Made by a program: the position numbers and the translations under genes. DNA of 64,000 nt, taken from contig CAVPLU010000014.1 of the NCBI GenBank assembly GCA_963706285.1, positions 32,211-96,210 on the forward strand, in the 5' to 3' direction. Origin of the DNA: Candidatus Bathyarchaeota archaeon. Lineage in GTDB: Archaea; Thermoproteota; Bathyarchaeia; 40CM-2-53-6. The notes under the pieces are model-generated. The model was not told the DNA's origin, did not search any database, and saw only the letters and a program-made list of their open reading frames with translations. Of this stretch, positions 39,702 to 63,931 are shown piece after piece; position 1 is the first letter of the stretch; every line of letters starts with the position of its first letter.

Positions 39702-39923
39702 GGCAAGAAGTCGACGAACCATAACGAATTTGCCTGCTTTCTCTCTTGATGACGTAGCAGTGAGTATTGGGTCACCTTTAATAGGAGTCTCACGCTATTA
39801 CGTGAGCAGTATACTGGAGATCTTACTGCGTGGATGACGCAAGGGCTGTGTGCCCAGTGCGCGATTATCGCGTCGAGTATTATCTTTTGTATAACTAGAG
39901 AATAGGGACGGTGGAATGCGAAT

Positions 39924-40076
39924 ATGGGTTATGAGAATCGACGATATGGTGCTCCGAGGCAAATGACGAAAGTCAAATGCTCCGAATGCGGCGCAGAGAC
40001 GGAAGTACCGTTTGTGCCGACGACCGGAAGACCAGTCTACTGTAGAGACTGCTACCAGAAGCACCGAAGATACTAG
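39924..40076 (+). CDS. CxxC-x17-CxxC small zinc-binding protein (50 aa), below ORF-track cutoff
   Basis: Manual translation MGYENRRYGAPRQMTKVKCSECGAETEVPFVPTTGRPVYCRDCYQKHRRY matches the family pattern. Confidence 0.9.
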   Translation: MGYENRRYGAPRQMTKVKCSECGAETEVPFVPTTGRPVYCRDCYQKHRRY

Positions 40077-40113
40077 GCTAACCGCCTAGGACCGATTGGT
40101 ACGAATTTCCCGA

Positions 40114-40130
40114 TTTTTTTGTTTATTTTT
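40114..40130 (+). terminator. Oligo-T archaeal terminator
   Basis: TTTTTTTGTTTATTTTT about 40 nt after the CxxC gene stop. Confidence 0.6.
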
Positions 40131-40497
40131 CAACCGTGCATCCTGCTGGTTTTCTAAACCAGGTTCGTCGCAATCAGGTCAGTTGATGCACCTGTACTAG
40201 AAGCGGTCGATCCGCATGTCGAGAGACACGAGGCTCTTTCTTGAATGAATGGGTCTTCTACAGTGTGGAGATTCCAAAGCAAATCGCCTTAGCAAGAGAG
40301 ACTAGGAACGAGCGAAGACGCAACGAGAACGCGAAGCATATCATGGACTGAATGTCGCACTGTCTGAACTGTGTTGCAATTGAGAGAGGTCAGACAAGTA
40401 AGAAGAAACGGAGAGAATCTGGTTCAGCGTACATGATTTCGTCGCGGTCGGAAGTGTTAAAATCCTGATTGTTGCATTAGATCTGCACGTGATTTCT

Positions 40498-40545
40498 ATG
40501 CCAAAAGCAAAGAAGAAGAAATCAAAAAAGAAAGCAAGGAAATAG
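40498..40545 (+). CDS. Putative 15-aa lysine-rich micropeptide
   Basis: MPKAKKKKSKKKARK*; TTAAAA at 40457-40462, GTGA at 40489, mixed AAA/AAG codons, hairpin just downstream. Confidence 0.5.
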   Translation: MPKAKKKKSKKKARK

Positions 40546-40715
40546 CGGAGTAGCAAAGGATTTCCTTTGCGGCGACGATAGGGTTCAAGTAACAAAGGTA
40601 GAGATTGCTGCGAAGCGTATTCCACTGAACCCCCGCTGCCGTTAGTAACCCACTTATCTTTCTCATGTTATGAGCGTCGGATTCATTGTCAGAGCTGCTT
40701 AGCAGGAGTCCAGTG

Positions 40716-41117
40716 ATGAACATGATCAGTAACACATGTCTCGAGAACAGATGCATCAAATGCTGTCTGAATACGGAGATGCCACTGAGCAGTTCAGATA
40801 TCGTCCGGATAGAGAAGCTCGGTTTCTCTGACGATTCCTTCATCGTGAAGGAAGATGGGAACCGGATTCTCAAGAATCTGTCAGGAAGGTGTGTCTTTCA
40901 CAATGGCCAACGATGCACGATCTATGATGATAGGCCTGAAGGCTGTCAGCTTTACCCAGTCATCCTCGATGAAGACGTGGGAGAGGCGATTCTCGATTCA
41001 TACTGCCCACATCACGAGAATTTCCAGCTGACGCCAACCATCTCACGAGACGTAATCGAACTGGTTCAAAAGGTAGATGCAGAGAAGAAGAGACGACTCA
41101 TCTCCGGGGAACACTGA
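40716..41117 (+). CDS. YkgJ/UPF0153 cysteine-cluster protein
   Basis: C...C.KCC, CVF....CTIYDDRPEGC.LYP, CP. Confidence 0.88.
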   Translation: MNMISNTCLENRCIKCCLNTEMPLSSSDIVRIEKLGFSDDSFIVKEDGNRILKNLSGRCVFHNGQRCTIYDDRPEGCQLYPVILDEDVGEAILDSYCPHHENFQLTPTISRDVIELVQKVDAEKKRRLISGEH

Positions 41118-41279
41118 ACGTCGAGGCGTCTGAGCTACTCAGGCATTCGCCGGTGTTCCGTGACCGACATTGTCTGCTAGACAATGAGCCTTGACTAGCG
41201 TCGTATGCGTTTGCCCGATGGTGAGGCAGGTTAAAAATGGACAGTTGAGTTGTCTCCTTTGTAGGATAGGCAGTTTGGA

Positions 41280-41582
41280 TTGGGAAAGAGAAGGGTCCTT
41301 TCAGAGGGAGACATTAACCAACTTGTTCTTCCAGGAATGGGTCAGTTGCTTGGGATTGTAACCCAAATGTTCGGGTACGATCGGATAATGGTGAAGTGTT
41401 CAGACGGAGCCGACCGAGTCTGTCGTATTAGAGGCAAGATGAAGAGGCGGGTCTGGATCAAGAATGGCGATGTGGTTCTTGTTGCCCCTTGGGATTTCCA
41501 AGCAAGTCGTGCGGACGTGATCTGGCGTTACACACAGAATCAAGCGCAGGTACTTCACAGCAAGGGCATTCTTACGATGTAG
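41280..41582 (+). CDS. eif1A: Translation initiation factor aIF-1A
   Basis: C.DG..R.CRIRGKMKRRVWI..GDVVLV.PWDFQ...D..WRY. Confidence 0.96.
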   Translation: MGKRRVLSEGDINQLVLPGMGQLLGIVTQMFGYDRIMVKCSDGADRVCRIRGKMKRRVWIKNGDVVLVAPWDFQASRADVIWRYTQNQAQVLHSKGILTM

Positions 41583-41772
41583 CTCAATACTGGAATTCTC
41601 CTAGCCAGCAGTACCTGTGCAAAGTTGCACTTGGAAGAGAGAGGCCATTGAGTGGCCTTCGCTTGTTTACATTCATGACAAAAATCAGTACAGTCGTTCG
41701 ACGACATAAGAAAAGAGAGAGCGGAATTCACACGAGATCGCTCCGCTGGGCGGGTGCGGCCTACTGTCGCAG

Positions 41773-42096
41773 CTAGGCTGCTTTTGTCACCGTGATCTCC
41801 ATCGTTGAGACGTTTCGCACTTGTCCTTCCTCGCCCAACTGCTCGGTTCCGATGGTGATTTTCTTGACGTGAAGCTTGCCTTCGAAGAATCGTCTTCTGC
41901 ACACTTCAACGACATCAACGGCTGCAGATATGGCTCGCCCTCTCGCTTTGATTGTTACATCACCGCTGCCGCTGGTGAATTGCATCAAGATGGCTGTAAC
42001 GTAGGCCATGATGGGTTTTTGTCCGATGAAGATGGTGCTCGAGGGGATTCCACTCTGGGTAGGAGGGGTTGGCGTAACTTTCTGTTGTTCTGTCAT
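41773..42096 (-). CDS. albA: DNA/RNA-binding protein Alba
   Basis: IFIG.KP.MAYV.A, IKARGRAIS.AVDV, IGTE, VST.EI. Confidence 0.95.
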   Translation of the reverse strand: MTEQQKVTPTPPTQSGIPSSTIFIGQKPIMAYVTAILMQFTSGSGDVTIKARGRAISAAVDVVEVCRRRFFEGKLHVKKITIGTEQLGEEGQVRNVSTMEITVTKAA

Positions 42097-42483
42097 GTTC
42101 TGTTCACCACTTTTTGCTTCTGTTACACATTGGATGGGACAGACGGTCCGAATCCACTGTATACGCCCATGGATACCCTTTCCATCCACTTAAGTATCCT
42201 TAGAACAGCCAGAAGTGCACGACGCCGACATCGAAGGCCAGCTAAGGGTCTTACCTTCAACGTCATTTGACACTTTATTGTCTCGGTAACACGTGCCTGA
42301 TTCTTGGCAGGTCTTTGGAAAGACTTGAACCATGGGTCACAACTCTTAGAAAAGAGAAACAAGATCATGAATTCGTGAAGCATTTCCAGAAACTCTGCGA
42401 ATTGACCGTAGCTCATATGAAAGAGGCTTCACACAAATAGCCATAGAGTGTAGTGCACATGGAAGGACATAGGGGTAGCATGA

Positions 42484-52172: not shown

Positions 52173-54047
52173 TTATTTGGGCAGGGATTCTAGGTATCTG
52201 TTGATTTCTGTCTCGGCGTTGTCTGCTGTGATGAAGATTGGAACGTTCTCCATTCCTGTGGCTATGTAGCTTGAGAGCAGCCACCGGCCCGGCGAGAACT
52301 CCAGAGTCTTTTCGAGTATGCTCGGATCGATTGTGAACGTTGTGCTGACCAGGCTTCGATCATACTGGCGAGGCAGTGTGCCAACAAAGTACGTGTGAAG
52401 CTGTTGAAGTGCATTCGTGTTGAGATAGGCGATTCTCTGTGTCGCGATGCATCCGCCAAGCCCATACTTGCGGCCTTGCCTGAGAAGCGTCTCAACCGCT
52501 TCTGTGCATTCACGCTCGATTCCACGAGCCTCAGATGTCGCAGGAGCAAACTCCTGAGCTTCATCGAACACAAACAAAACCCACGGCTTGACCTTGAATT
52601 TCCGTTTGCGGTTCCAAAGCGTCTCCCTAGTCAAATCAACCGCAAGCTGCTTGATTGTCACAGGATCAGAGATCGAAAGCGAGATGAGGCGAGTAGGTCC
52701 CTCAAGGAGACGATGTATCTTCTCAGTATCTAATCCTGGTCTGCTTTTCTCAGCGGCTCCCCTACGAATTGCGTCTAGGAGTTGTTTTCGCGATGTCGCC
52801 CAGCCGTAGACGTTGCTCTTATCGCTGACTTTGTACCGTTCCACGGCGCCTTGGGCTGTCGTGTCCAAGAACGTAACGAATTCTTCATCGATCTCGTCTA
52901 GCTCGTTTCTGTTTTCTTTGGTCATGTATTCGGCGACTGCCGACGATATGGCTTCGAGCGCCTCAAGGTAGACTTGCTTACCAGAGCTTTCGCCTATCAT
53001 CGAGCCAATTGCCACTAGAATGTCCGTGTAGCGAGGAACCACAAACCTAGGTTTGACGTATCGGTCAACTCTACCTAGTTCCATTATGGTTTGGAAGGCT
53101 TTGACTGGTCGCTCGTCCTTCTCAAACTCTCGCGGCTTCACGACCGAGTCATACAGTTGAGTTGCATTTTTGATCTGATCTTCTAGGACTATTTTGGAAG
53201 GAATGGCCTTGTCAGCGAACACGTCCATGAGCAGGAACGGATACTCCATCGAGATGTCGAAGATCACTACCTTCGTGTCCTTAGTGTGATAGATGAGGCG
53301 GCGTAGAATATTCGAGAGTAGGTTGGATTTTCCGCCGCCTGTGAATGAGAAGATGCCAAAGTGGTAGCGTAGTAGGTTCTCGAAGTTCACGTAGATCGGA
53401 ACCCTGATCTTCTCAGATTCGAACATCTTGATGACGCCAAGACGTGGGTCCTCACGTGCCACATCGGTCGTTTTCAGCTTCTTCCAGTCGACACCCATCT
53501 CTTCAAGGATTCTGCGATTGTACATTTGGTGAATCATATCTTGGTTGAGGATGTGTGTCTCCTCTCCAACGATCGGGTAGGAGAATCCCTTCACGTACTC
53601 TGGTTCGCCTTTGTCGGCGATAACGAGGTCATAGTTGATCGGGATCGCTTGTACCTGGATCATCATGGTGGATCTGTCGTTGGAGTCCCAGTCCCGAACT
53701 GACTGCTGGATAATCTCAAACTGCATTGGGTAGTAGCTTTGATCGGATAAGCCGCGCAAGCCGAAATGCTCCGGCCTGATACTGGCGATTTCTGAGAGCG
53801 TGTATCTCTCGCCTCCTTCCTTCGTTGCTCGAAAGTTCCTAACCGCAAGTATCATCCCCTCTTCCACCAGACGCATAATGTCTCTCTGATACTCGGCTTT
53901 CACGGTGCACTCGTACCGAGCGGTGGTGCTGATCTGTGTGGTTTCGGGCGTCGGGCCGTAGCGCGGGCGAACCATTGCCACCCGCGCTTTGAATCTCCCG
54001 TCGAAGTCTGTGAAGTATCGCTTAAGGTCCTCTTCTCGTTGATTCAA
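52173..54047 (-). CDS. HerA-family ATPase/helicase
   Basis: HFGIF..TGGGKS Walker A, IFD..MEY, VFDEAQEF Walker B, RQGRKYG....ATQR. Confidence 0.9.
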   Translation of the reverse strand: MNQREEDLKRYFTDFDGRFKARVAMVRPRYGPTPETTQISTTARYECTVKAEYQRDIMRLVEEGMILAVRNFRATKEGGERYTLSEIASIRPEHFGLRGLSDQSYYPMQFEIIQQSVRDWDSNDRSTMMIQVQAIPINYDLVIADKGEPEYVKGFSYPIVGEETHILNQDMIHQMYNRRILEEMGVDWKKLKTTDVAREDPRLGVIKMFESEKIRVPIYVNFENLLRYHFGIFSFTGGGKSNLLSNILRRLIYHTKDTKVVIFDISMEYPFLLMDVFADKAIPSKIVLEDQIKNATQLYDSVVKPREFEKDERPVKAFQTIMELGRVDRYVKPRFVVPRYTDILVAIGSMIGESSGKQVYLEALEAISSAVAEYMTKENRNELDEIDEEFVTFLDTTAQGAVERYKVSDKSNVYGWATSRKQLLDAIRRGAAEKSRPGLDTEKIHRLLEGPTRLISLSISDPVTIKQLAVDLTRETLWNRKRKFKVKPWVLFVFDEAQEFAPATSEARGIERECTEAVETLLRQGRKYGLGGCIATQRIAYLNTNALQQLHTYFVGTLPRQYDRSLVSTTFTIDPSILEKTLEFSPGRWLLSSYIATGMENVPIFITADNAETEINRYLESLPK

Positions 54048-55917
54048 ATTCAGCTCTCCTTTCTCTAAACGTGCTCATATAGAAAACGAACTCGCGTAAG
54101 TCATGGTTCGTCATAATCCAGTCCCTCGTCGTTTCAACAATTCTCCTGAACTCACGCGCATGCCACTTCGCGACATTGTCCGCGATGAAGAGAGGCACAT
54201 TGTGGCCGAACGCTTCAGGAATACTTGTGCTCGTCATCGCACTTAGTGCAACCATAGTGAGGTTCTGGATATCATTGCGAGCTTCCTTGTTCGGGAAGAG
54301 TATTGGTTTCACCTTCTCCTCGACGCCTCCATACTCGTGAGAAAGCTCGCATACAAGATTAGGATTCAAATCCAATTCCGGACAAACTAGCCGATCCATG
54401 AGTAGGACATTGCTACGCAGCTTCGGGTCCTGCTCAGCCTGTGCAAGCTGGATATACGACTTCAAGAACAGTCGCTCAGAGTTCACTCTGTTCTGGACGG
54501 CGCCGCTCACAAATCCCTCTCTACCGGGCGTGTTGTCTTTGGGTAGTTCGGGGACCATGGTCTTGAAGGCGGTATCATACTCGACGAGCGCCCACGGAAC
54601 CGACAGCTTCTCCCAATTGTGAACAGAGGCGGACTGAAGGAGCATCCTGTCAGTTCTAGGAATGTTATCCATAGCCTCGCCTGATAGGTCAAGCTTCCAC
54701 ATGTGCTCGCTACTGCAAATCTTGACTACCTGGCGTTGGAAGTCTCGGGCGGCGGTGTCCTTCGTGAGGCCGATCAATAGAACCGGCTTCTTCCAGCACT
54801 CCTCGATCATCATGTTGAGAGAGAAGAGGGTGAGGAACGCCATGTCAACCGTCGTGAGCCAAGTTTGTTTGCCGGCTTTCGTGATCATCATCGGGTTCGG
54901 TCGCTCGGTCAACGGCTGATCAAGGAACAGGCGGTCACCGATGGTGCGCGTGAGCTTCTTCATTCGCTCCCAACAATTCCGATACTCCTCCCTCAAAGCA
55001 TAGCTGGAGCCTGTCGACTGAATGTAGTTAGCCTTCTCGAGGCCGTCTAGGATCTTCTTGGCTCTACGTTTGCAGTTGGCGTGTTCAAGATGGAGTCGCC
55101 CGCAGAGTTCGTCGAGCGTGAGCGAGCTTGCGGTTTCGAGTTCGTAGAGAAGGCGCGGTCTCAGATAGTCGCCTCTGGGTGGTGGAAGGTCGAGCGTTTT
55201 GTTGATGAATCGGTGGCGACAGTAAATCATCTCCTCCATGCGTACTGGTTGCCCGTCGAGGTCATAACCGCAGAGGCCTGACTTCTCTCTGAGCCTTTGA
55301 CCATGCGCTGTGTCGCTGATGAGGGCGGAATGCTCGCCTGAGAGGGTCCGATCCATCAGCAGGATCCGCACCTCCTCGTCGACGATGAGCCTGTAGGCGA
55401 GATAGAACTCTGAGAACGCCATTATCCAGTCGGCGATTCGTGAATTATCGAATACCGCCTTGTCATCGAGAGGTTTCTTGGCGCCGATCGCGTCGATCAT
55501 AGAATCGACATCAGAGACCTCATTCACATAGAGTGGAACACAGCTTGAGATGCCTCGACCATGTTCGAGTAGCTTGCCCGCATGCTCGACCGACGGCTTA
55601 GCGTCCTTGTGGAATGTGATCCAGCCGAAGGAGACGTAGGCGCCGCCGAAGAAGATGATCAGATCGAACATGTTGCGAGCGTACTCGGTTCCGTCGACAG
55701 CGGCGAACTTCACACGGTCGGAACCGAACAGCTTCAAAGCGGTCTCATGCGCCCGTTCCACACTGAAGTCTTGAACGATAAGGTTCGAGAGGAGCGCCTC
55801 ATAGACGCCGCTCGCTGAGGAGAATCGCTGGCTGTAGTCGGATATGCGGTCTAAGGCGCCTGCTTTCAGAAAATGGCCGGCTCGCTTCAGCTGACTGCTG
55901 AGGAATGATGTCTCCAT
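54022..55917 (-). CDS. NurA-family nuclease with inserted winged-helix domain
   Basis: FAAVDGT, ILLMDRTL, IGLTKD, GHNVPLFIAD; internal LLYELE...LTLDELCGRL...KKILDGLEKANYI wHTH; overlaps herA. Confidence 0.75.
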   Translation of the reverse strand: METSFLSSQLKRAGHFLKAGALDRISDYSQRFSSASGVYEALLSNLIVQDFSVERAHETALKLFGSDRVKFAAVDGTEYARNMFDLIIFFGGAYVSFGWITFHKDAKPSVEHAGKLLEHGRGISSCVPLYVNEVSDVDSMIDAIGAKKPLDDKAVFDNSRIADWIMAFSEFYLAYRLIVDEEVRILLMDRTLSGEHSALISDTAHGQRLREKSGLCGYDLDGQPVRMEEMIYCRHRFINKTLDLPPPRGDYLRPRLLYELETASSLTLDELCGRLHLEHANCKRRAKKILDGLEKANYIQSTGSSYALREEYRNCWERMKKLTRTIGDRLFLDQPLTERPNPMMITKAGKQTWLTTVDMAFLTLFSLNMMIEECWKKPVLLIGLTKDTAARDFQRQVVKICSSEHMWKLDLSGEAMDNIPRTDRMLLQSASVHNWEKLSVPWALVEYDTAFKTMVPELPKDNTPGREGFVSGAVQNRVNSERLFLKSYIQLAQAEQDPKLRSNVLLMDRLVCPELDLNPNLVCELSHEYGGVEEKVKPILFPNKEARNDIQNLTMVALSAMTSTSIPEAFGHNVPLFIADNVAKWHAREFRRIVETTRDWIMTNHDLREFVFYMSTFRERRAEFESTRRGP

Positions 55918-56101: not shown

Positions 56102-56380
56102 CTACTTGTATGCTCGTGATCTAAACTCTAGGGCCAAGATGCTGATTCGTTTAGATTCCCAGGCCACTTCGTATTCGATGCGGATGTCTCCTATTCGTAT
56201 GCGGTAGGTGTTCTTCAGTCCGTGCAGTTTCTTGACCTCATATTCAGGAACAGGTGCCGGATTCTGCTTCAACGCTTCAAACGCGAGGATTGCTCTATGC
56301 GCATACTGCTGGGGCAGTCTTTTCAGAGATTTTCTCGCACGGTTTGATATGACAATATCGAACAGAGGGTCACGCACCAA
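56102..56380 (-). CDS. relE: RelE/ParE-family toxin
   Basis: ARKSLKRL, VKKLHG...TYRIRIGDIRI.Y, RSRAYK. Confidence 0.9.
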   Translation of the reverse strand: MVRDPLFDIVISNRARKSLKRLPQQYAHRAILAFEALKQNPAPVPEYEVKKLHGLKNTYRIRIGDIRIEYEVAWESKRISILALEFRSRAYK

Positions 56381-56573
56381 TCTCTTTTCGGAGTTGGGCG
56401 AGCGTCACGAACGTACCCCTCTCGATTTCTCGGCGACCCAGAGCGATCTGTCTCTTCTCCGATGCGGTGGGTCGCTCCTCCGGCAAGAGGTCGGCTCGAA
56501 GCCGCAGAAGCTCAACCTTCACATCGTCAAGCTTAGTGATCACCTTGTGAAGTTCAATCTTCGTGACCGCCAT
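56370..56573 (-). CDS. Cognate antitoxin (archaeal RelB-like)
   Basis: 67 aa upstream of and overlapping relE; LLPEE.PT..E......R.EI.RG.FVTL..L pattern. Confidence 0.8.
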   Translation of the reverse strand: MAVTKIELHKVITKLDDVKVELLRLRADLLPEERPTASEKRQIALGRREIERGTFVTLAQLRKEIGA

Positions 56574-57314: not shown

Positions 57315-57419
57315 GATGAAGCAGTCGCTAGTGTATGATTTGCAGGAGCCGTTTCGTTGGATAGCTGATGTAACGGTGATAGATGCTTTCGAATGTGTAT
57401 CTCGAACTCGACGACTACC

Positions 57420-57708
57420 AAGTCCAGAGTTGCGCCGAGAGCGCAGGATTACATCAAGACCTTCATGCGAGCAAACGCGCTTCTGAACGGCAGATGTAAG
57501 GTCACCATGTCGGACTTGTCTTCTGTATGATCTTGTGCATCCGCTCTTCCTGAACAGCGTGGGCGAACTGGGAACAGAGAACCGTTTGCTATCGCTCATC
57601 AAGAAGAATCCGGACAAGCCGGATAAGGAGATTATCAAGATGAGCGGTCTTTCAAAGGGAACCTTCTACAAGTACAAGAAGATTCTCCAACAGAAGAATC
57701 TGATCTGA
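57420..57708 (+). pseudogene. C-terminal fragment of an AAA+ (MCM/MoxR-like lid) plus wHTH protein
   Basis: Manual translation PRAQDYIKTFMRANALLNGRCKVTMSDL, frameshift, LYDLVHPLF...DKEIIKMSGLSKGTFYKYKKILQQKNLI*; no P-loop upstream. Confidence 0.55.
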
Positions 57709-57724
57709 CGTGACTTCACTGAAA

Positions 57725-58154
57725 TCAAAACGAACGGAGTATCTTTTCCTTCACACTCACCGGATTCTCGCTTTAATTCGTGTTCCCACACCTCGATGAC
57801 TCTCCAACCCATTGATTCCAGCTCTCGCTTGACGAGCCGATCCCTCGCCCTATTCCGTTCGAATTTCGTCGCCCAGAACTCGCGGTTTCTTTTCGGAAGG
57901 GCGAAAGCACACCGAGGACACCTGTGCCAGAAGCAACCATGCAAGAAGACAACCATCTTCTTCCTCGGGAAAACGAAGTCGGGTTTCCCTGGCAGGTCGT
58001 TCTTGCTGATCTTCTTTCGAAGAAGTCTGGACAGAAGCAGCTCGGGTCTTGTCCCGGACGATTTGTTGGCCTGCATTGACTTCGATACGCTTGCACTGGT
58101 TGACTTTGGAGTGCTCAAGGTGCCCCAGCGGTTTGCGCCACGGCATTTCATCAT
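57725..58154 (-). CDS. vsr: Very-short-patch repair endonuclease Vsr (apparent frameshift near 57771)
   Basis: M.ANKS.GT.PE, LPGKPDF, FLHGCFWH.C, FW..KF.RN..RD, GW.V..VWE; corrected end ENPVSVKEKILRSF* at 57725. Confidence 0.92.
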
Positions 58155-58172
58155 GGAATCTATCAAAAACCA

Positions 58173-58180
58173 TTTATAAA
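58173..58180. promoter_or_regulatory. Palindromic TATA box between divergent vsr and methyltransferase
   Basis: TTTATAAA about 20 nt from the start codons on both strands. Confidence 0.55.
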
Positions 58181-58200
58181 GACTCTTTCAATGACAAACG

Positions 58201-59290
58201 GTGTCGAAAGCCATCGATACCCTAGGCGTAGAAGTAGTGCCGGAAGCCATGGATACACCGGGCGTCATTGACGTCTTTTGCGGTATTGGAGGGCTGACTC
58301 ACGGATTTTTCAAAGAGGATTTCAAGATTCTCGGGGGAATAGACGTAGACGCCTCTTGCAAGTACGCGTTCGAAAGCAACAACAAGGCTCCGTTCGTAAA
58401 CAAGTCAATAGAAGACGTCAAGTCTGACGAAGTCTCGGCGCTCTTCGGCGAATGCAAAACCAAGATACTGATCGGATGCGCGCCTTGCCAACCGTTCTCC
58501 ATGTACAACAGGAAGAAAAGCGAGAACGCCAAGTGGAAACTGCTTAGGAATTTCTCGAGGCTCGTGTCGGACATCCGACCGGACATAGTGTCAATGGAAA
58601 ATGTGCCGCAGCTTTGCCATCACCGGGTATTCGGCGAGTTTCTTAGGGATTTGAAGAGGGCGGGCTACACGGTTTCTCAGTATGTGGTCTTTTGCCCTGA
58701 CTACGGCGTCCCTCAGAGAAGGAGAAGACTGGTCCTTTTCGCTTCCAAGTTCGGCGAAATTAAGTTATTGCCCAAGACCCACTCGCCCAAGAACTACAAG
58801 AGAGTCAGGAATGCAATATTCAAGCTAAGACCCATAGGATCTGGCGAGGTCGGACCCCAAGGACCCGTTGCACAGATCCCAGAAACTCAGCCCACTGAAC
58901 TTGATACGGATCAGAAACACACCCGAAGGTGGCGCATGGCAGAGTTGGGATGATTCTCTCAAGTTGAAATGCCACAAGAAGAAGAAAGGCCACTCGTTCC
59001 GAGCTGTATACGGCAGAATGCGATGGGACGACCTGGGCTCAACAATCACGACGCAATCCTTCAAGTTGGGTACCGGCAGATTCGGTCACCCAGAGCAAGA
59101 CAGGGCGATATCGATAAGGGAAGCAGCTCTGCTGCAAACCTTCCCGAAATACTACAAGTTCGTCAGAGACCAATCGGACATCACTTTCGTGGAGCTGTCC
59201 AGACACATCGGAAATGCAGTGCCCGTCAGGCTCGGCAGGGTCATCGCGAAGAGCATCAAGAAACACTTGGAGCAGATTGGCAATGAGTGA
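58201..59290 (+). CDS. dcm: C5 DNA cytosine methyltransferase (1-nt frameshift near 58851)
   Basis: FCGIGG, APCQPFS, ENV, PQRRRR in first ORF; REAALLQTFP and GNAVP in second; removing one G gives GEVDPKDPLHRS. Confidence 0.93.
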
Positions 59291-60978
59291 TAGGGACTCA
59301 TTCACGTTCGTAATGTCTCTAAGTATTCTGGATCATCTCGGTAGAAAACTTTACCGAAGCTTTGCAACCGTTCTTGGAGAGGCCATATCGAATTCCTGGG
59401 ACGCTAACGCCGACAACGTATGGATCTACATTGACAAAAGGAAGAACAGTTTTGTCATAAAAGATGACGGTGACGGCATGACATCGGAAGATTTCCAGAA
59501 CAAGTTCCTGAAGATCGGGTATACAAAAAGAAAACACGGGGAAACTCATTCACCGAATAAGCATAGACCGTACGTCGGCAGGAAGGGGATAGGGAAATTG
59601 GCGCTGTTGTCGTGCGCGGACAAGATCGCCGTCATTTCAAAAACCAAGAGCGGGGAGTACGTTGGTGGGATGATTGACAATGGAGAATTGGATAAAGCAA
59701 TAACCGACGACCTGAACCCCCAGCAGTATCCTCTTGAAAACGTGGTTTTAGATGATTTCAGCAAATACATGAAGGATCACAAGAAGGGCACAATCATCTA
59801 TTTCGAGAACATGAAACAAGGCATGAGGAATAGCCTCGACAACATAAGAAGAATACTTGCTCTGTTCTTCCGATTTTCACTAGTTGACAAATCATTCAAG
59901 ATCTTTGTCGATGACAAGCCAATCACATTTGACGACCTCAACGATCTCGCTAAACGCACGGAATTCTTGTGGATCATCAACGACCTCAAGGACCCATATG
60001 TCACCGAGAAACTGAAGTATGAGAAGACAAACCTCAAGAACGATGTTAATCTGCTGGAACCGGGAAAGAAGATAGATATCGACGACAACTCCGAGGGATT
60101 CATCGCTTCCGTTCGCAAGCCAGCGGATCTCAACGATATTCGGTACGGATGAAAGAGTCGGTGTTGATCTCTTCGTGAACGGCAGACTTCGAGAAAGAGA
60201 CCTTTTGAGACACATCCCTACAGCAAAGTTGCCCGAGAACTATTTGTATGGCCAAATTCACCGTAATGATTTGGACGACGACAAGGATAGATTTTCGACC
60301 AGCCGAGAAGGAATCATCGCTGAAGATGACAAATTCAAACAACTCTTGAAGAGCCTGAGTGAAATCATAGCGAACGTTATCGCGGATTGGGACTCCTTGA
60401 GGCGAAAATACCACAAGGAGGGAGATCCAGAGAACACCAGCATTACGAGGAAAGAGAGGAAGGCCGAGGAACTGTACAACGTTGTTTCCGTTGAATACAA
60501 GATTCCAGAGGACACAGGCAAACCGGGACTAAAGGAGAAAGTTGACCAATGGGTGGATGATTTGTCAAAAGACGCTGCTTACAACTTCTCTTCTTATGCG
60601 GACTGCTTCATCTCAGAGAACCTAATCAGGAAGCACATCGAAGATAAGAAGGTCCCACTATCCAAAGAAGCGATCGAACGGATAAACGATAACAAGAGCC
60701 GTGAAAAACTGAACAAGAACAAGGGAAACATAAGCATAGACTTGAGAAAAACGCCGATCGATACGAGTTACTTGTCGATGGATGATTTGGCGAACCTTGT
60801 TGACAAGACAAAGGATCCGATTAAGGAAGCTGCCCTTTCCAGAGACGCGTCTGAATACAAGCCAATCAGAGATGCGCTTATGCACACTGCACTCTTGACC
60901 GACGAGGCGAAGAAGAAATTGACTACGGTTTTTTCGAACATAACATCACGCGTGAGGACACTGCTTTCAAAGGAATAA
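59283..60978 (+). CDS. GHKL (MORC-like) ATPase fused to a C-terminal HEPN-like domain (1-nt frameshift near 60132)
   Basis: EAISNSWDA, DDGDGM, GRKGIGK, GT motifs; joined linker TIFGTDERVGVDLFVNGRLRE; C-terminal ENLIRKHI, SYLSMDDLANLV, RDALMH (Rx4H); overlaps MTase stop by 8 nt. Confidence 0.8.
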
Positions 60979-61136
60979 CATGTTGTCACACCTTTGTCCG
61001 TCATCCGGTGAATGACGTACAATTCAAGAATCTGGGAGCAGGAGAGTACACTATTCAGGTGGTCGTCGTCAAGCCATTCGAATTTGAACCGTCATGAGGA
61101 GATGGAGTGGCGTTCGTTCTTCGTCGTCGGGACACT

Positions 61137-61162
61137 TGGTGCGGGCAACGAAATTTGAACCC
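61137..61162 (-). other. Degenerate tRNA 3'-end fragment, possible att site
   Basis: Reverse complement GGGTTCAAATTTCGTTGCCCGCACCA has a T-loop (GGTTCAAAT) and an acceptor strand ending CCA, with no 5' half. Confidence 0.45.
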
Positions 61163-61368
61163 TCATAGGAGGGTGTGTTTTCGTCGTCGCGCGCCAAGAG
61201 TGCCACACATTCATGACAGGCGATGACCCATGCCCTTCCGGCGGTGATGAGGCTCTCAAAGGGGCACCTCTTTCCCGTAGGTGGGACCTCTTTGCATAAT
61301 CTCCGGAGTCGATTTCGATTTGATACTAATAACCGAGGGACAAGAGAGTAGGATGGCTGGTTTCGGCG

Positions 61369-62003
61369 ATGATAGAGATCCTTGGAATCTCAGGCAGCCC
61401 TCGCAAGGGAGGCAACACCGATCAGTGTTTACAGGAAGTGTTGCGAGCCTGTTCGGAGAAATGTAGAACCGAACTCGTAGCTTAGCACATACGAACATTG
61501 CTGAGTGTGACGGCTGCAATCGCTGAAGAAGGAAGGAACCAGGAAGCTTCCCTGCCCAGCACATGACGATGACATGACTCTGCTCTATGCTAAGCTGGCT
61601 TCAGCGGACGGATTCCTGTTCGCTAGTCCTGTATACTATGGGTCTGTAACCGGTATCCACGAAGCTGTTCATGGACAGGTTTCTTCCCTTCTATCTATGA
61701 ATCAGGCTCAGAAAGCGAACTGAAAGGCGCACTCAGATTCAAGCCCGCAGGAGCAATAGCTGTCGGTGGAGGAAGAAACGATGGGATCCAGCGGTTCTCA
61801 CGCTCCACAGATTCTTCCTCTTCAACGACATGCTGGTCGTAGGTACGGCCGGATACCCTGATTCAGCCTCCAATCTTGGAGGAACCATCTTCTCCGACAG
61901 CAAGCCTAACGCGCTGACACGAGATGCCCTTGGAAGGAGCACTCTCAGGGCATTAGGAAGTAAGGTTTCGCTGACAGCTGAAAGACTTGCCCATTTGCGG
62001 TGA
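61369..62003 (+). pseudogene. Flavodoxin / iron-sulfur flavoprotein family gene with several frameshifts (or consensus errors)
   Basis: MIEILGISGSPRKGGNT, ECDGCNR, DDM..LYAKLASADGFLFASPVYYGSV, KLFMDR, AIAVGGGRN appear in different frames. Confidence 0.75.
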
Positions 62004-63931
62004 CGAAGGCTTGGTCAAGGGGCAAGCTGTTCTTTCGGTTTTGACGTCCGAGTATCACTAGACCAACGACAGCAATACCCGCGAGGGTTGCGATGATGAG
62101 AAGTGCTATGAGCCATACCGTAAGGATCGTGAGGAGGCTCACGGATGTTTGAGTTGACGTGTAGTTTGTGCTCTTCACCTTGGCGGCTACAGTGTGTGAA
62201 CCGGTTCATTCAGTTCCAGCTTGAGAACCACTCTCGCTTCTCCGTTCGCATCAGTTTGAGCGATTGTTCTCTGAACGTTGTCGACGTAGATGGCAATGCT
62301 GACGCCAGCCAATGGCTTCCCATCTGCATTCTTAACAGATATTTCGACAGGCACGTTATCGGTGGTTGAGATGCTTGGAGTTGATATTATCATTGTAATT
62401 TTCGCAGGTTTGATGCTTACAGTGAATTCCGCGGAGTCGGAGAGCACGATGCGTCACCCTCCTCCAGCATAGAAGAAACGTGCCCTATAGTCGCCTGCGG
62501 GATAGTTCAGATCAACTTGGAATGAGATCGCGCCCTGCTGGTTTGTAACTTTCGTTCCAATGTTCTGCCACTGCCCCGTGGTCGAGTTGAATATTTCAAG
62601 CCGAACCGGCTGGTCACCCATCAGCGCTCCATTTCCGCTCGTCAGCGTTCCAGTCAAGACAACACTCTGGCTGTATGAACCACTGAAAAGAGTTCTGCGA
62701 AGGCTTCAGGTTGACGTTTGATAATGATCCGGCGAGTTCTTGTGTCGAATAGATGGCGGTTACGGTGGAGTCGTTGCTCTGGAATGCGAGAAAAACGTTG
62801 TTGGCTGGGTCACGAAATGTGTTTCCAACTGTGAAGGCGGCGACGTCGAGCCGTTCGGCGCGGACTTGGCGTGGGAAGAGACCTCCACTAATAGGGTTAA
62901 CGAGCCTGACGATTCCTTCACCGGAGTCGAGTGATTCATCGACATAGGATACTAGGATGCCGGTGGCAACGAAGTCTGCTAAAATTCCTGCTCGTTGCCT
63001 GTATTCTACAACGTGATACCTAGTCGACGAGACAGGTATCAAGATCGATGATGCTCCCGGGTATTCCAGAGGATTCAGGGTAAACGAAGAAACAACCGTG
63101 TTGGGGTTGGGATGGAGGGAGTAATCCATCCGAGTGCAACGGCACCCCAAGCGCCAATGTATGAGGGCGTCAGATCGTCCTGGAGCGCTGCAGCAGAAGG
63201 CGCCGGTGTCGATTAGGGACCAATATCCAACATAGTTGTCGCTAGTGGAGGAGTCATAGAGGTCCGGGAATCCGAAGAGGTGCCCCGTCTCATGCACAAA
63301 CGTGCCTAATCGATCGAATTCGGACAGGAATGTGACGCACTGAAATGATTTCGAACGAACCACTACCCGCTCTGCTGGGCCATAGTCTGGAAATGTCGAG
63401 CAGGAGGTCTGAGACCAGATCTCACCGGTAAGAGTCATGCCCGTGTTAGTTGCCTGGTCCTGACCCGCGTGAACAATCATCAGATACTTGAAGGAACTGG
63501 TATCGACTGAGGAAGGCAGCATAGCGGCTGCATCTTCCGCCAGCGAGAACAGGTTCATGTCTTGGCCTGGCGTTCTGCGGTCGTCTGTAGTAGCCCATCG
63601 TGTTACTCACTGTGTACCAGCCGTACACTTCGGCGGCTACTGAGGCTTTCCCGTAGGAAACCTCGCTGTAGTAATTGTTCATTCCATCAATAGCGAGGCT
63701 TTTCATTTGGTCGACGCTTATCGAGTGTTTGACATCCTGAAAATCCACGAGAAGAACAAGAACTTGCTGAGGCCCAGTGATTGAATGCTGACCAGAGAGG
63801 ACCTTGTAGTTGTAGCTGGAGGTGGAGATTGCCTGGGCCTGGGGTATTGAAGCTGGAGTAAGCCAGATCGACATCGAAAAGGCTAGTAGAACGAGTAGGA
63901 AATACCCTTGCAGTTTCTTCGTATCCAACAC
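61945..63931 (-). CDS. Secreted M6 (immune inhibitor A-like) metalloprotease with Ig-like domains and C-terminal TM, split into several ORFs by frameshifts
   Basis: Signal peptide, VLLVDFQD, YYSEVSYGK, IVHAG, HETGHLFGFPDLYD, VGYWSL, VEYR; Ig-like TDANG repeats; TM in last fragment; exact 3' end uncertain. Confidence 0.85.

Follow-up and report, generated by a model that had tools for sequence, protein, structure and literature searches.

A methyltransferase-linked GHKL ATPase with a candidate Swt1-like HEPN effector domain in a frameshifted three-gene cassette of a Bathyarchaeota contig

Analysis of a 64,000-nucleotide stretch of contig CAVPLU010000014.1 from Candidatus Bathyarchaeota archaeon (assembly GCA_963706285.1), hereafter the window, revealed a three-gene cassette at 57725-60978, composed of a gene for a very short patch repair endonuclease (Vsr) on the minus strand, a C5 cytosine DNA methyltransferase (MTase) gene and a gene for a GHKL protein of about 565 residues. 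Based on the sequences of these genes and of their relatives, we read the cassette as a restriction-modification (R-M)-like module in which a HgiDII-type GHKL sensor is joined to a putative RNase effector, a Swt1-like HEPN domain, with the MTase as antidote, and we assign to this reading a probability of about 0.5. Further comparisons suggest that the cassette is widespread and horizontally mobile, with two to three genes, and that its C5-MTase clade also partners HgiDII-type enzymes.

The vsr gene extends over 57725..58166 (minus strand) in the frame of its relatives, and as an open reading frame (ORF) of 57666-58166 in the assembly as it stands. Its product matches TIGR00632 with 115.5 bits (cut-off 97.85) over model positions 4-119 of 119, corresponding to residues 21-130, and the assignment is also supported by a PF03852 match and by the Vsr model of PADLOC. 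The C5-MTase gene (58201..59290, plus strand), divergent from vsr and separated from it by 34 bases, is read in two frames as assembled (58201-58953 and 58868-59290). The two pieces cover positions 3-188 and 231-324 of the 324 positions of PF00145 and match the PADLOC MTase_II model with E-values of 1e-49 and 8e-32. The third gene starts with an ATG at 59283-59285 and overlaps the end of the MTase gene (stop codon at 59288-59290) by 8 nt, consistent with translational coupling. This gene encodes the GHKL-S5-HEPN-like protein (59283..60978, plus strand) and consists, as assembled, of an ORF at 59283-60152 followed by a second frame open to 60978. Its GHKL ATPase and transducer region (59301..60423, plus strand) matches PF13589 (HATPase_c_3) with 78.1 bits (E 8.5e-22, cut-off 25). 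The Bergerat-fold motifs can be read in the window translation as EAISNSWDA, DDGDGM, GRKGIGK and KGTIIYF, which we take to be the ExxxN..D, DxGxG, GxxGxG and GT motifs, respectively. An earlier sequence-only reading of this DNA had placed the three genes here and had claimed a complete set of GHKL motifs; the ORFs and family matches bear out the former, and the four motifs the latter. Numerous intact homologues of 547-564 residues, with 59-86% identity, show that the GHKL protein is more than a chance product of the reading frames.

Comparison with NF050001, the model of the BbrUII/HgiDII restriction enzymes, indicates that the first 370 or so residues of the GHKL protein are homologous to these enzymes, while the last 185 or so are not. 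The two window pieces match model positions 1-270 (E 2.3e-65) and 284-368 (E 2.7e-12), so that the homology of the GHKL and transducer region extends over the first 368 positions of the model. Intact homologues reach 276.6-295.7 bits (E 4e-82 to 7e-88) from position 1 to about 370 of 659, short of the curated cut-off of 550 bits. Among them, the intact counterpart P0002, with 564 residues and 85-86% identity to the window protein, has 276.6 bits (E 4e-82) over positions 1-368 of 659. As a positive control, a paralogue encoded in a related locus, L040, scores 804.9 bits across positions 1-659. The nearest PADLOC models, REase_II PDLC03419 and PDLC03485, are likewise matched only in their first 360-390 positions. 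HgiDII-type proteins have about 650 residues and end in an alpha/beta domain with restriction-endonuclease-like fold matches, in which D142, E156 and K158 (the D..ExK signature) are invariant in 31 sequences. The family of the window protein, hereafter GHKL-HEPN, has about 555-565 residues, and its C-terminal domain consists entirely of helices that do not align with the C-terminal part of the NF050001 model. The suspected lack of a HgiDII-type nuclease-like domain is thus upheld, the match being limited to model positions 1-368 and the D..ExK domain being replaced. The GHKL-HEPN proteins have probably swapped the restriction-fold domain of HgiDII for a divergent Swt1-like HEPN domain. R.HgiDII itself is described by Orlowski and Bujnicki 2008 (PMC2441816) as a GHKL domain followed by an unassigned C-terminal domain, and other subfamilies of GHKL restriction enzymes with differing C-termini are listed there.

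The C-terminal domain (184 residues, 60424..60975, plus strand) is probably a HEPN domain. Its sole invariant positions among 56 homologues with 31-86% identity are Y141, E148, N149, R152, R232 and H237. The E-N-x-x-R motif, invariant among homologues, lies in the first long helix of the domain (ENLIR, 60616..60630, plus strand) and aligns with the EN..R of Swt1-like domains, while the R-x4-H motif with its invariant R and H (RDALMH, 60868..60885, plus strand) aligns with the RNxxAH of Swt1-like HEPN. Both segments that had first suggested a HEPN domain, ENLIRKHI and RDALMH, are seen in the window protein, and the R and H whose conservation had been put forward as a check are kept in 56/56 homologues and 79/79 loci; in these loci, which are all the metagenomic ones with a complete C-terminal domain, EN..R is kept together with Rx4H.

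For a more specific assignment, eight Swt1-like domains (PF18731) from genomes of the same phylum were aligned and used in a profile-profile comparison. With hhalign, the C-terminal domain matched this profile with a probability of 79.9% (E 1.4e-5) over 97 columns, with the blocks EN..R, Y.(S/D)..DL..(I/L)(V/I) and R..(L/A)xH in register. The probability was 0.1% for the reversed alignment and at most 2.4% for 30 column shuffles. Three Ymh (PF09509) domains, which make a weak three-sequence profile, gave 0.1%, and no PF09509 match was found in the C-terminal domains at E<=10 for the window or E<=1 for 48 members of the family. The same PF09509 model finds an unrelated Ymh-family HEPN protein elsewhere in the source genome (G000:C13:16112-16426, locus L096, E 3e-16).

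Structure prediction is consistent with this assignment. As a homodimer, the C-terminal domain obtained a score of 0.89, compared with 0.00 for the best of three controls. Of 30 solved homodimers, 20 reached this mark, compared with one of 23 proteins solved as single chains. Between the dimer runs, at least 95% of contacts are shared, and the partner pLDDT is at least 84. The predicted symmetric interface involves the EN..R helix (58-67) and residues 153-159, with contacts between the two copies of residue 153, which adjoins H154, and between residue 155 and residues 62, 65 and 66 of the other copy. In the predicted homodimer, the two Rx4H motifs are thus placed face to face at the two-fold axis. 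HEPN dimers with motifs juxtaposed in the same arrangement are described in bioRxiv 10.64898/2026.09.30.754977. Since HEPN dimers are among solved structures, the dimer score may partly reflect likeness to them. Taken together, the conserved EN..R and Rx4H, the hhalign match and the dimer prediction agree with the proposal of the sequence-only reading that this domain is HEPN-like, and specifically Swt1-like.

The gene neighbourhood was compared in 80 metagenomic loci related to the cassette. The MTase family is found in 76 of them. In 70 loci the 5' end is complete and the sequence extends at least 450 bp further upstream. Among these, the MTase ends 0-120 bp upstream of the GHKL-HEPN gene on the same strand in 53 and overlaps its start by a few nucleotides in nine more (L017, L031, L033, L035, L037, L047, L058, L070 and L075), so that it lies directly upstream in 62/70. 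The remaining eight have a C5-MTase elsewhere in the locus: downstream in L015 and L051, divergent in L040 and L080, separated by another GHKL gene and Vsr in L028, as a weaker MTase downstream in L053, and as a distant C5-methylase ORF, convergent downstream, in L052 and L062. Of the 63 loci that extend far enough, 44 have a Vsr start no more than 400 bp downstream, 40 of them with Vsr on the same strand, and the divergent vsr of the window is thus a minority layout. Clustering of the flanking ORFs yielded no further conserved gene family, the next clusters being antisense shadows of the three genes. Co-occurrence with C5-MTase and Vsr, which had been put forward as a check, is seen in these loci, and the remark that no separate nuclease gene is evident is supported, none being conserved among the clustered ORFs of the 80 loci.

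These counts bear on the role of Vsr. A GHKL+S5 protein that adjoins dcm and vsr and is predicted to dimerise through its C-terminal domain could be an accessory factor for Vsr very-short-patch repair, travelling with a Dcm-type MTase and using a MutL/Hsp90-like dimerisation domain, all the more since E. coli MutL stimulates Vsr (cited in PMC2292703). We regard such a MutL-like role as very improbable: 19 of the 63 loci have no Vsr within 400 bp downstream, yet a C5-MTase is found in 70/70 informative loci; the invariant, catalytic-type EN..R and Rx4H would be left unexplained; and sister families have nuclease-type C-terminal domains, HgiDII and BbrUII being named restriction enzymes. The best explanation for Vsr is that it accompanies the C5-MTase, not the effector; it would act as a nickase that repairs T:G mismatches arising from 5-methylcytosine deamination.

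In a quick tree of the MTases (62 rows, 61 different), the window MTase is grouped in the clade of MTases coupled to the GHKL-HEPN family, covering 61 loci. Nested within this clade are the MTases of L040, which has a HgiDII-type gene, and of L028, which has a third type of GHKL protein. The L028 MTase groups with those of L008, L011 and L026 (SH-aLRT 99), while that of L040 is on a long branch and its exact place is unsure. In L040 (1313-6798), a full HgiDII-family gene (651 residues, 804.9 bits), an MTase and Vsr lie on one strand with a divergent GHKL-HEPN member, and a single MTase appears to serve two GHKL proteins that differ in their effectors. In L028 (1729-6798), the order is MTase, third-type GHKL gene (626 residues), Vsr and GHKL-HEPN gene; the 626-residue protein matches the HgiDII model only at 1-422. 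No Pfam family was found for the C-terminal domains of the L028 (about 180 residues) and L040 paralogues. Tentatively, and with somewhat less than even odds, we propose that one GHKL reader module and one MTase clade carry interchangeable killing domains, namely a DNase, a HEPN RNase and the third type of L028. With the same reservation, the GHKL-HEPN family would be an R-M system with an RNA-destroying R arm, in which one polypeptide brings about methylation-gated abortive infection and the MTase is the antitoxin.

The closeness to HgiDII-type genes also raises the alternative that the GHKL-HEPN protein is an ordinary HgiDII-type DNA restriction enzyme, in which the helical C-terminal domain serves DNA recognition, dimerisation or a new DNase site, the cut is made by this domain or by another part of the protein, and the likeness to HEPN is superficial. 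We consider this unlikely, though much less so than a MutL-like role. The N-terminal 370 residues are indeed homologous to BbrUII/HgiDII, operon layout and MTase clade match those of HgiDII-type genes, the nearest PADLOC models are of the REase_II type, Pfam gives no HEPN match, and the fold matches are moderate: the top six Foldseek rows all belong to chains from two Csm6 entries, with E-values of 0.65-1.5, and no PDB match was found at E<=0.001 with either of the two models. The very domain that marks HgiDII, with its invariant D..ExK, is missing, however, and its all-helical replacement has invariant residues in the HEPN pattern and an in-register profile-profile match. Scans with family models detected no PD-(D/E)xK, HNH or other nuclease family in the GHKL-HEPN protein.

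How an RNase-armed module of this kind might work can be outlined as follows. The GHKL-HEPN protein would be dimeric, held by its C-terminal HEPN domains, which would form a composite Rx4H site. The MTase would protect the host from this protein, acting as its antidote; if so, the N-terminal module must read the DNA methylation state, and would examine DNA and sense unmethylated cognate sites. ATP-driven closure of the GHKL clamp would then license the C-terminal effector. HEPN catalysis needs a 2'-OH, and DNA is not cleavable by it. An active HEPN domain could therefore not supply the DNA cleavage of a classical restriction enzyme, and the effector would cleave RNA, not DNA. With an RNA-cutting effector, defence would in turn proceed by growth arrest or abortive infection.

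Several points weigh against this interpretation. DNA binding, methylation sensing, ATP dependence and RNA cleavage are all inferred from the sequences. HMMER finds none of the Pfam HEPN families in 48/48 C-terminal domains at E<=1, nor in that of the window protein at E<=10, and the last 184 or so residues of this protein have no relevant sequence match in Pfam (E<=10), PADLOC or NCBIfam. Sequence searches of the PDB, with a single sequence and with a 48-sequence profile, returned nothing relevant, and PF18731 finds nothing in the source genome at E<=1e-5. In a protein atlas, the lead to a Swt1-like HEPN cluster comes at rank 3 with a score of only 0.75. The closest characterised relatives, HgiDII and BbrUII, are DNA restriction enzymes, and the nearest PADLOC models are those of Type II restriction enzymes. 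The genome shows no depletion of GTCGAC, the HgiDII site (ratio 0.99, rank 45 of 64 palindromes), which gives no sign of past selection, though the window MTase may have a different target. Finally, the local copy carries three frameshifts and cannot by itself be functional as assembled. Among 6-bp palindromes in the same genome (G000), under-representation is strongest for GCGCGC (ratio 0.38), TTGCAA (0.62) and CTCGAG (0.70).

The GHKL-HEPN family is large. With the 267-residue second GHKL piece as query and restriction to longer proteins, the search returned 1660 proteins at E<=0.001 (clusters at 90% identity) from bacteria and archaea. The 120 homologues listed have 500-605 residues and 59-86% identity, and the matches listed include Thaumarchaeota, Thermoplasmatales, ANME-1, Desulfobacteria, Actinobacteria and many metagenomes. 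A HMMER search with the C-terminal domain (last 184 residues) among 1.84 billion representatives gave 190 clusters at 50% identity; in the listed representatives longer than 540 residues (about 37), the domain is always C-terminal, and the shorter ones resemble fragments. None of 400 further genomes sampled within the phylum contained a match to the GHKL gene at E<=1e-20, and a single-protein search of genome contigs for related loci gave two weak, irrelevant loci. An intact methylase-GHKL pair (CUV01_RS19480 and CUV01_RS19485, the latter labelled 'ATP-binding protein') resides on pBM153, a conjugative 20-kb plasmid of Paracoccus tegillarcae. The absence from the 400 genomes and this plasmid copy fit a mobile, horizontally acquired cassette. 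Those homologues that have a name at all bear the label 'ATP-binding protein' or 'DNA mismatch repair protein', and neither Pfam nor PADLOC 2.0 nor NCBIfam contains a model for a HgiDII-type GHKL module joined to a Swt1-like HEPN domain. Contrary to the sequence-only reading, split ORFs are not what hides the system from annotation, since intact homologues are themselves labelled 'ATP-binding protein'. A large and highly conserved family thus goes under this label alone, and catalogues of restriction enzymes and defence systems consequently miss it or would mis-file it as a Type II restriction enzyme.

Related architectures have been described. GHKL families termed paraMORC, in operons with cytosine methylases and Vsr and with variable C-terminal effectors, were reported by Iyer et al. 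2008 (PMC2292703). Anantharaman et al. 2013 (PMC3710099) described HEPN domains of the Ymh family fused to paraMORCs in R-M neighbourhoods, with a proposed PrrC/RloC-like role, and HEPN domains of the Abi2/Swt1 family fused to other NTPases in R-M systems. The Ymh-HEPN/paraMORC proteins (PF09509; R.NmeAIP, PMC2441816) resemble the window protein in their N-terminal GHKL module, C-terminal HEPN domain and methylase operon, and the RNase hypothesis published for them (PMC3710099) is the same idea as that of the sequence-only reading. They differ in that the HEPN domain of the window protein is not of the Ymh type (no PF09509 match; 0.1% versus 79.9% for Swt1-like). The concept of an RNase-armed GHKL-HEPN protein in an R-M context was therefore predicted in 2013 and is not categorically new. 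The main texts of PMC2292703 and PMC3710099, as far as these were covered, do not mention a HgiDII-type GHKL module joined to a Swt1-like HEPN domain; the supplement of PMC3710099 may list the family. The main-text literature searched yielded no experiments on any GHKL protein that carries a Swt1-like HEPN domain. The novelty supposed by the sequence-only reading is nevertheless overstated: the N-terminal two thirds are of a known type, and the paraMORC operons of 2008 and the GHKL-HEPN fusion of 2013 precede it.

The likeness to the characterised HgiDII-type enzymes R.HgiDII and R.BbrUII extends from the homologous GHKL and transducer module (model 1-368) to the operon order of MTase, GHKL protein and Vsr and to MTases of one clade; M.BbrUII is given as an adenine methylase in PMC5829577 and as a 5mC methylase in PMC5867850. 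PrrC and RloC also combine an NTPase with a C-terminal HEPN RNase in an R-M locus, as a second, RNA-directed line of defence (PMC3710099). They have ABC-type ATPases and reside in Type I (or Ic) R-M loci with a DNA endonuclease of their own, whereas the GHKL-HEPN cassette has a GHKL ATPase and no conserved gene for a separate endonuclease. Among eukaryotic proteins, sacsin joins Hsp90-like GHKL repeats to a C-terminal HEPN domain. Tiamat and other GHL-ATPase defence proteins (bioRxiv 10.64898/2026.09.30.754977) similarly pair a GHKL ATPase with a C-terminal nuclease effector, and the same work reports both a swapping of effectors among relatives and the presence of methylases nearby. Unlike the GHKL-HEPN proteins, Tiamat carries a PD-(D/E)xK DNase, is mostly accompanied by adenine methylases and, according to this work, belongs with sacsin and Hsp90 to a clade apart from the paraMORCs.

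If the HEPN domain is an active effector, the cassette would couple epigenetic self-marking directly to cell suicide at the level of RNA, with no DNA endonuclease involved, a mode that was predicted in 2013 and for which we found no demonstration in the literature searched. The comparison with HgiDII offers a natural experiment, with one sensor and different effectors, that could reveal how GHKL/MORC-type ATPases read methylation. For the source genome itself there is little consequence, because its copy is broken as assembled.

Each gene of the local copy contains one extra base, at 57765 (vsr), 58852 (MTase) and 60134 (GHKL), that is missing from related contigs. These contigs come from four public runs and are about 89-97% identical to the window; they represent relatives, not the source reads, since no public run contained more than 13% of the sampled words of the stretch. 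No RNA run was listed as containing it. Sites 57765 and 58852 are covered by all four runs, and 60134 by a single run (X1). The breaks lie within 1-6 nt of the positions predicted from the sequence (57771, 58851 and 60132). The inserted bases are T in ggaTtctc, G in gtcGgac and C in caaCgat; two of the three lengthen a run of just two identical bases and the third is outside any run. In vsr, the break is past the end of the match to the Vsr model and the frame of the relatives stops at 57725, so that only about the last 13 residues are affected.

The local copy is either inactivated or mis-assembled, and we lean slightly towards real decay. The alternative, specific to the window, is that the frameshifts are assembly or consensus errors in a strain-variable region near a contig end and that the organism has an intact cassette; we see this as a realistic but lesser possibility. 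A distance of 3-6 kb separates the cassette from the end of its contig (C14), the source is a metagenome-assembled genome with 7.5% contamination, and several related cassette variants are present in metagenomes. Apart from the three insertions, the frames are clean, with 85-86% identity to the intact homologue. Ten suspicious overlapping frame pairs elsewhere in the window, however, proved to be separate intact genes, which indicates that indel errors are not general in the assembly. The two insertions that extend runs do so for runs of only two bases, the third being in no run, and the adjacent remnants of genes for an FMN reductase, an M6 peptidase (split) and a Cas1-like protein fit real decay. 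Frameshifted copies of GHKL-HEPN genes occur elsewhere too: in two of the 80 related loci, L054 (5136-6792) and L039 (129-1481), the gene is found in two overlapping pieces in different frames.

The remnants on both sides of the cassette are as follows. Just upstream, a 56-residue ORF (57316-57486, plus strand) has a weak match to Cas1 (PF01867, E 0.009, profile positions 226-250 of 283) and may be a Cas1 remnant. Downstream, no long ORF is present in the 1.6 kb past the GHKL gene (60980-62600), which suggests decayed genes, and a fragment of 49 residues (61574-61723, plus strand) matches only positions 63-88 of 152 of the NADPH-dependent FMN reductase profile (E 9.6e-7). Further on, an M6-peptidase-like gene with Ig-like repeats (62187-63931, minus strand) is broken near the contig end into at least two frames with one in-frame stop, its pieces lying at 63446-63931, 62614-63558, 62454-62657 and 62187-62447.

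Other neighbours of the cassette include a small winged-helix HTH ORF that abuts the end of vsr (57535..57708, plus strand; PF13412, E 3.4e-5). This candidate member of the cassette is not conserved among the related loci, according to the flanking-ORF clustering of the 80 loci. On the minus strand, an overlapping pair at 52173-55917 encodes a HerA-like ATPase (DUF87, E 1e-13) and a 631-residue protein with a weak NurA match (E 0.006), and may be of HerA/NurA type or related to defence. Between this pair and the cassette, a ParE/RelE-type toxin gene (PF05016, E 4e-9) with a small overlapping upstream ORF (56102-56573, minus strand) likely forms a toxin-antitoxin pair. Farther away in the window, the region 39800-42450 has a low coverage by long ORFs, 0.39 in a 4-kb bin compared with a contig mean of 0.82.

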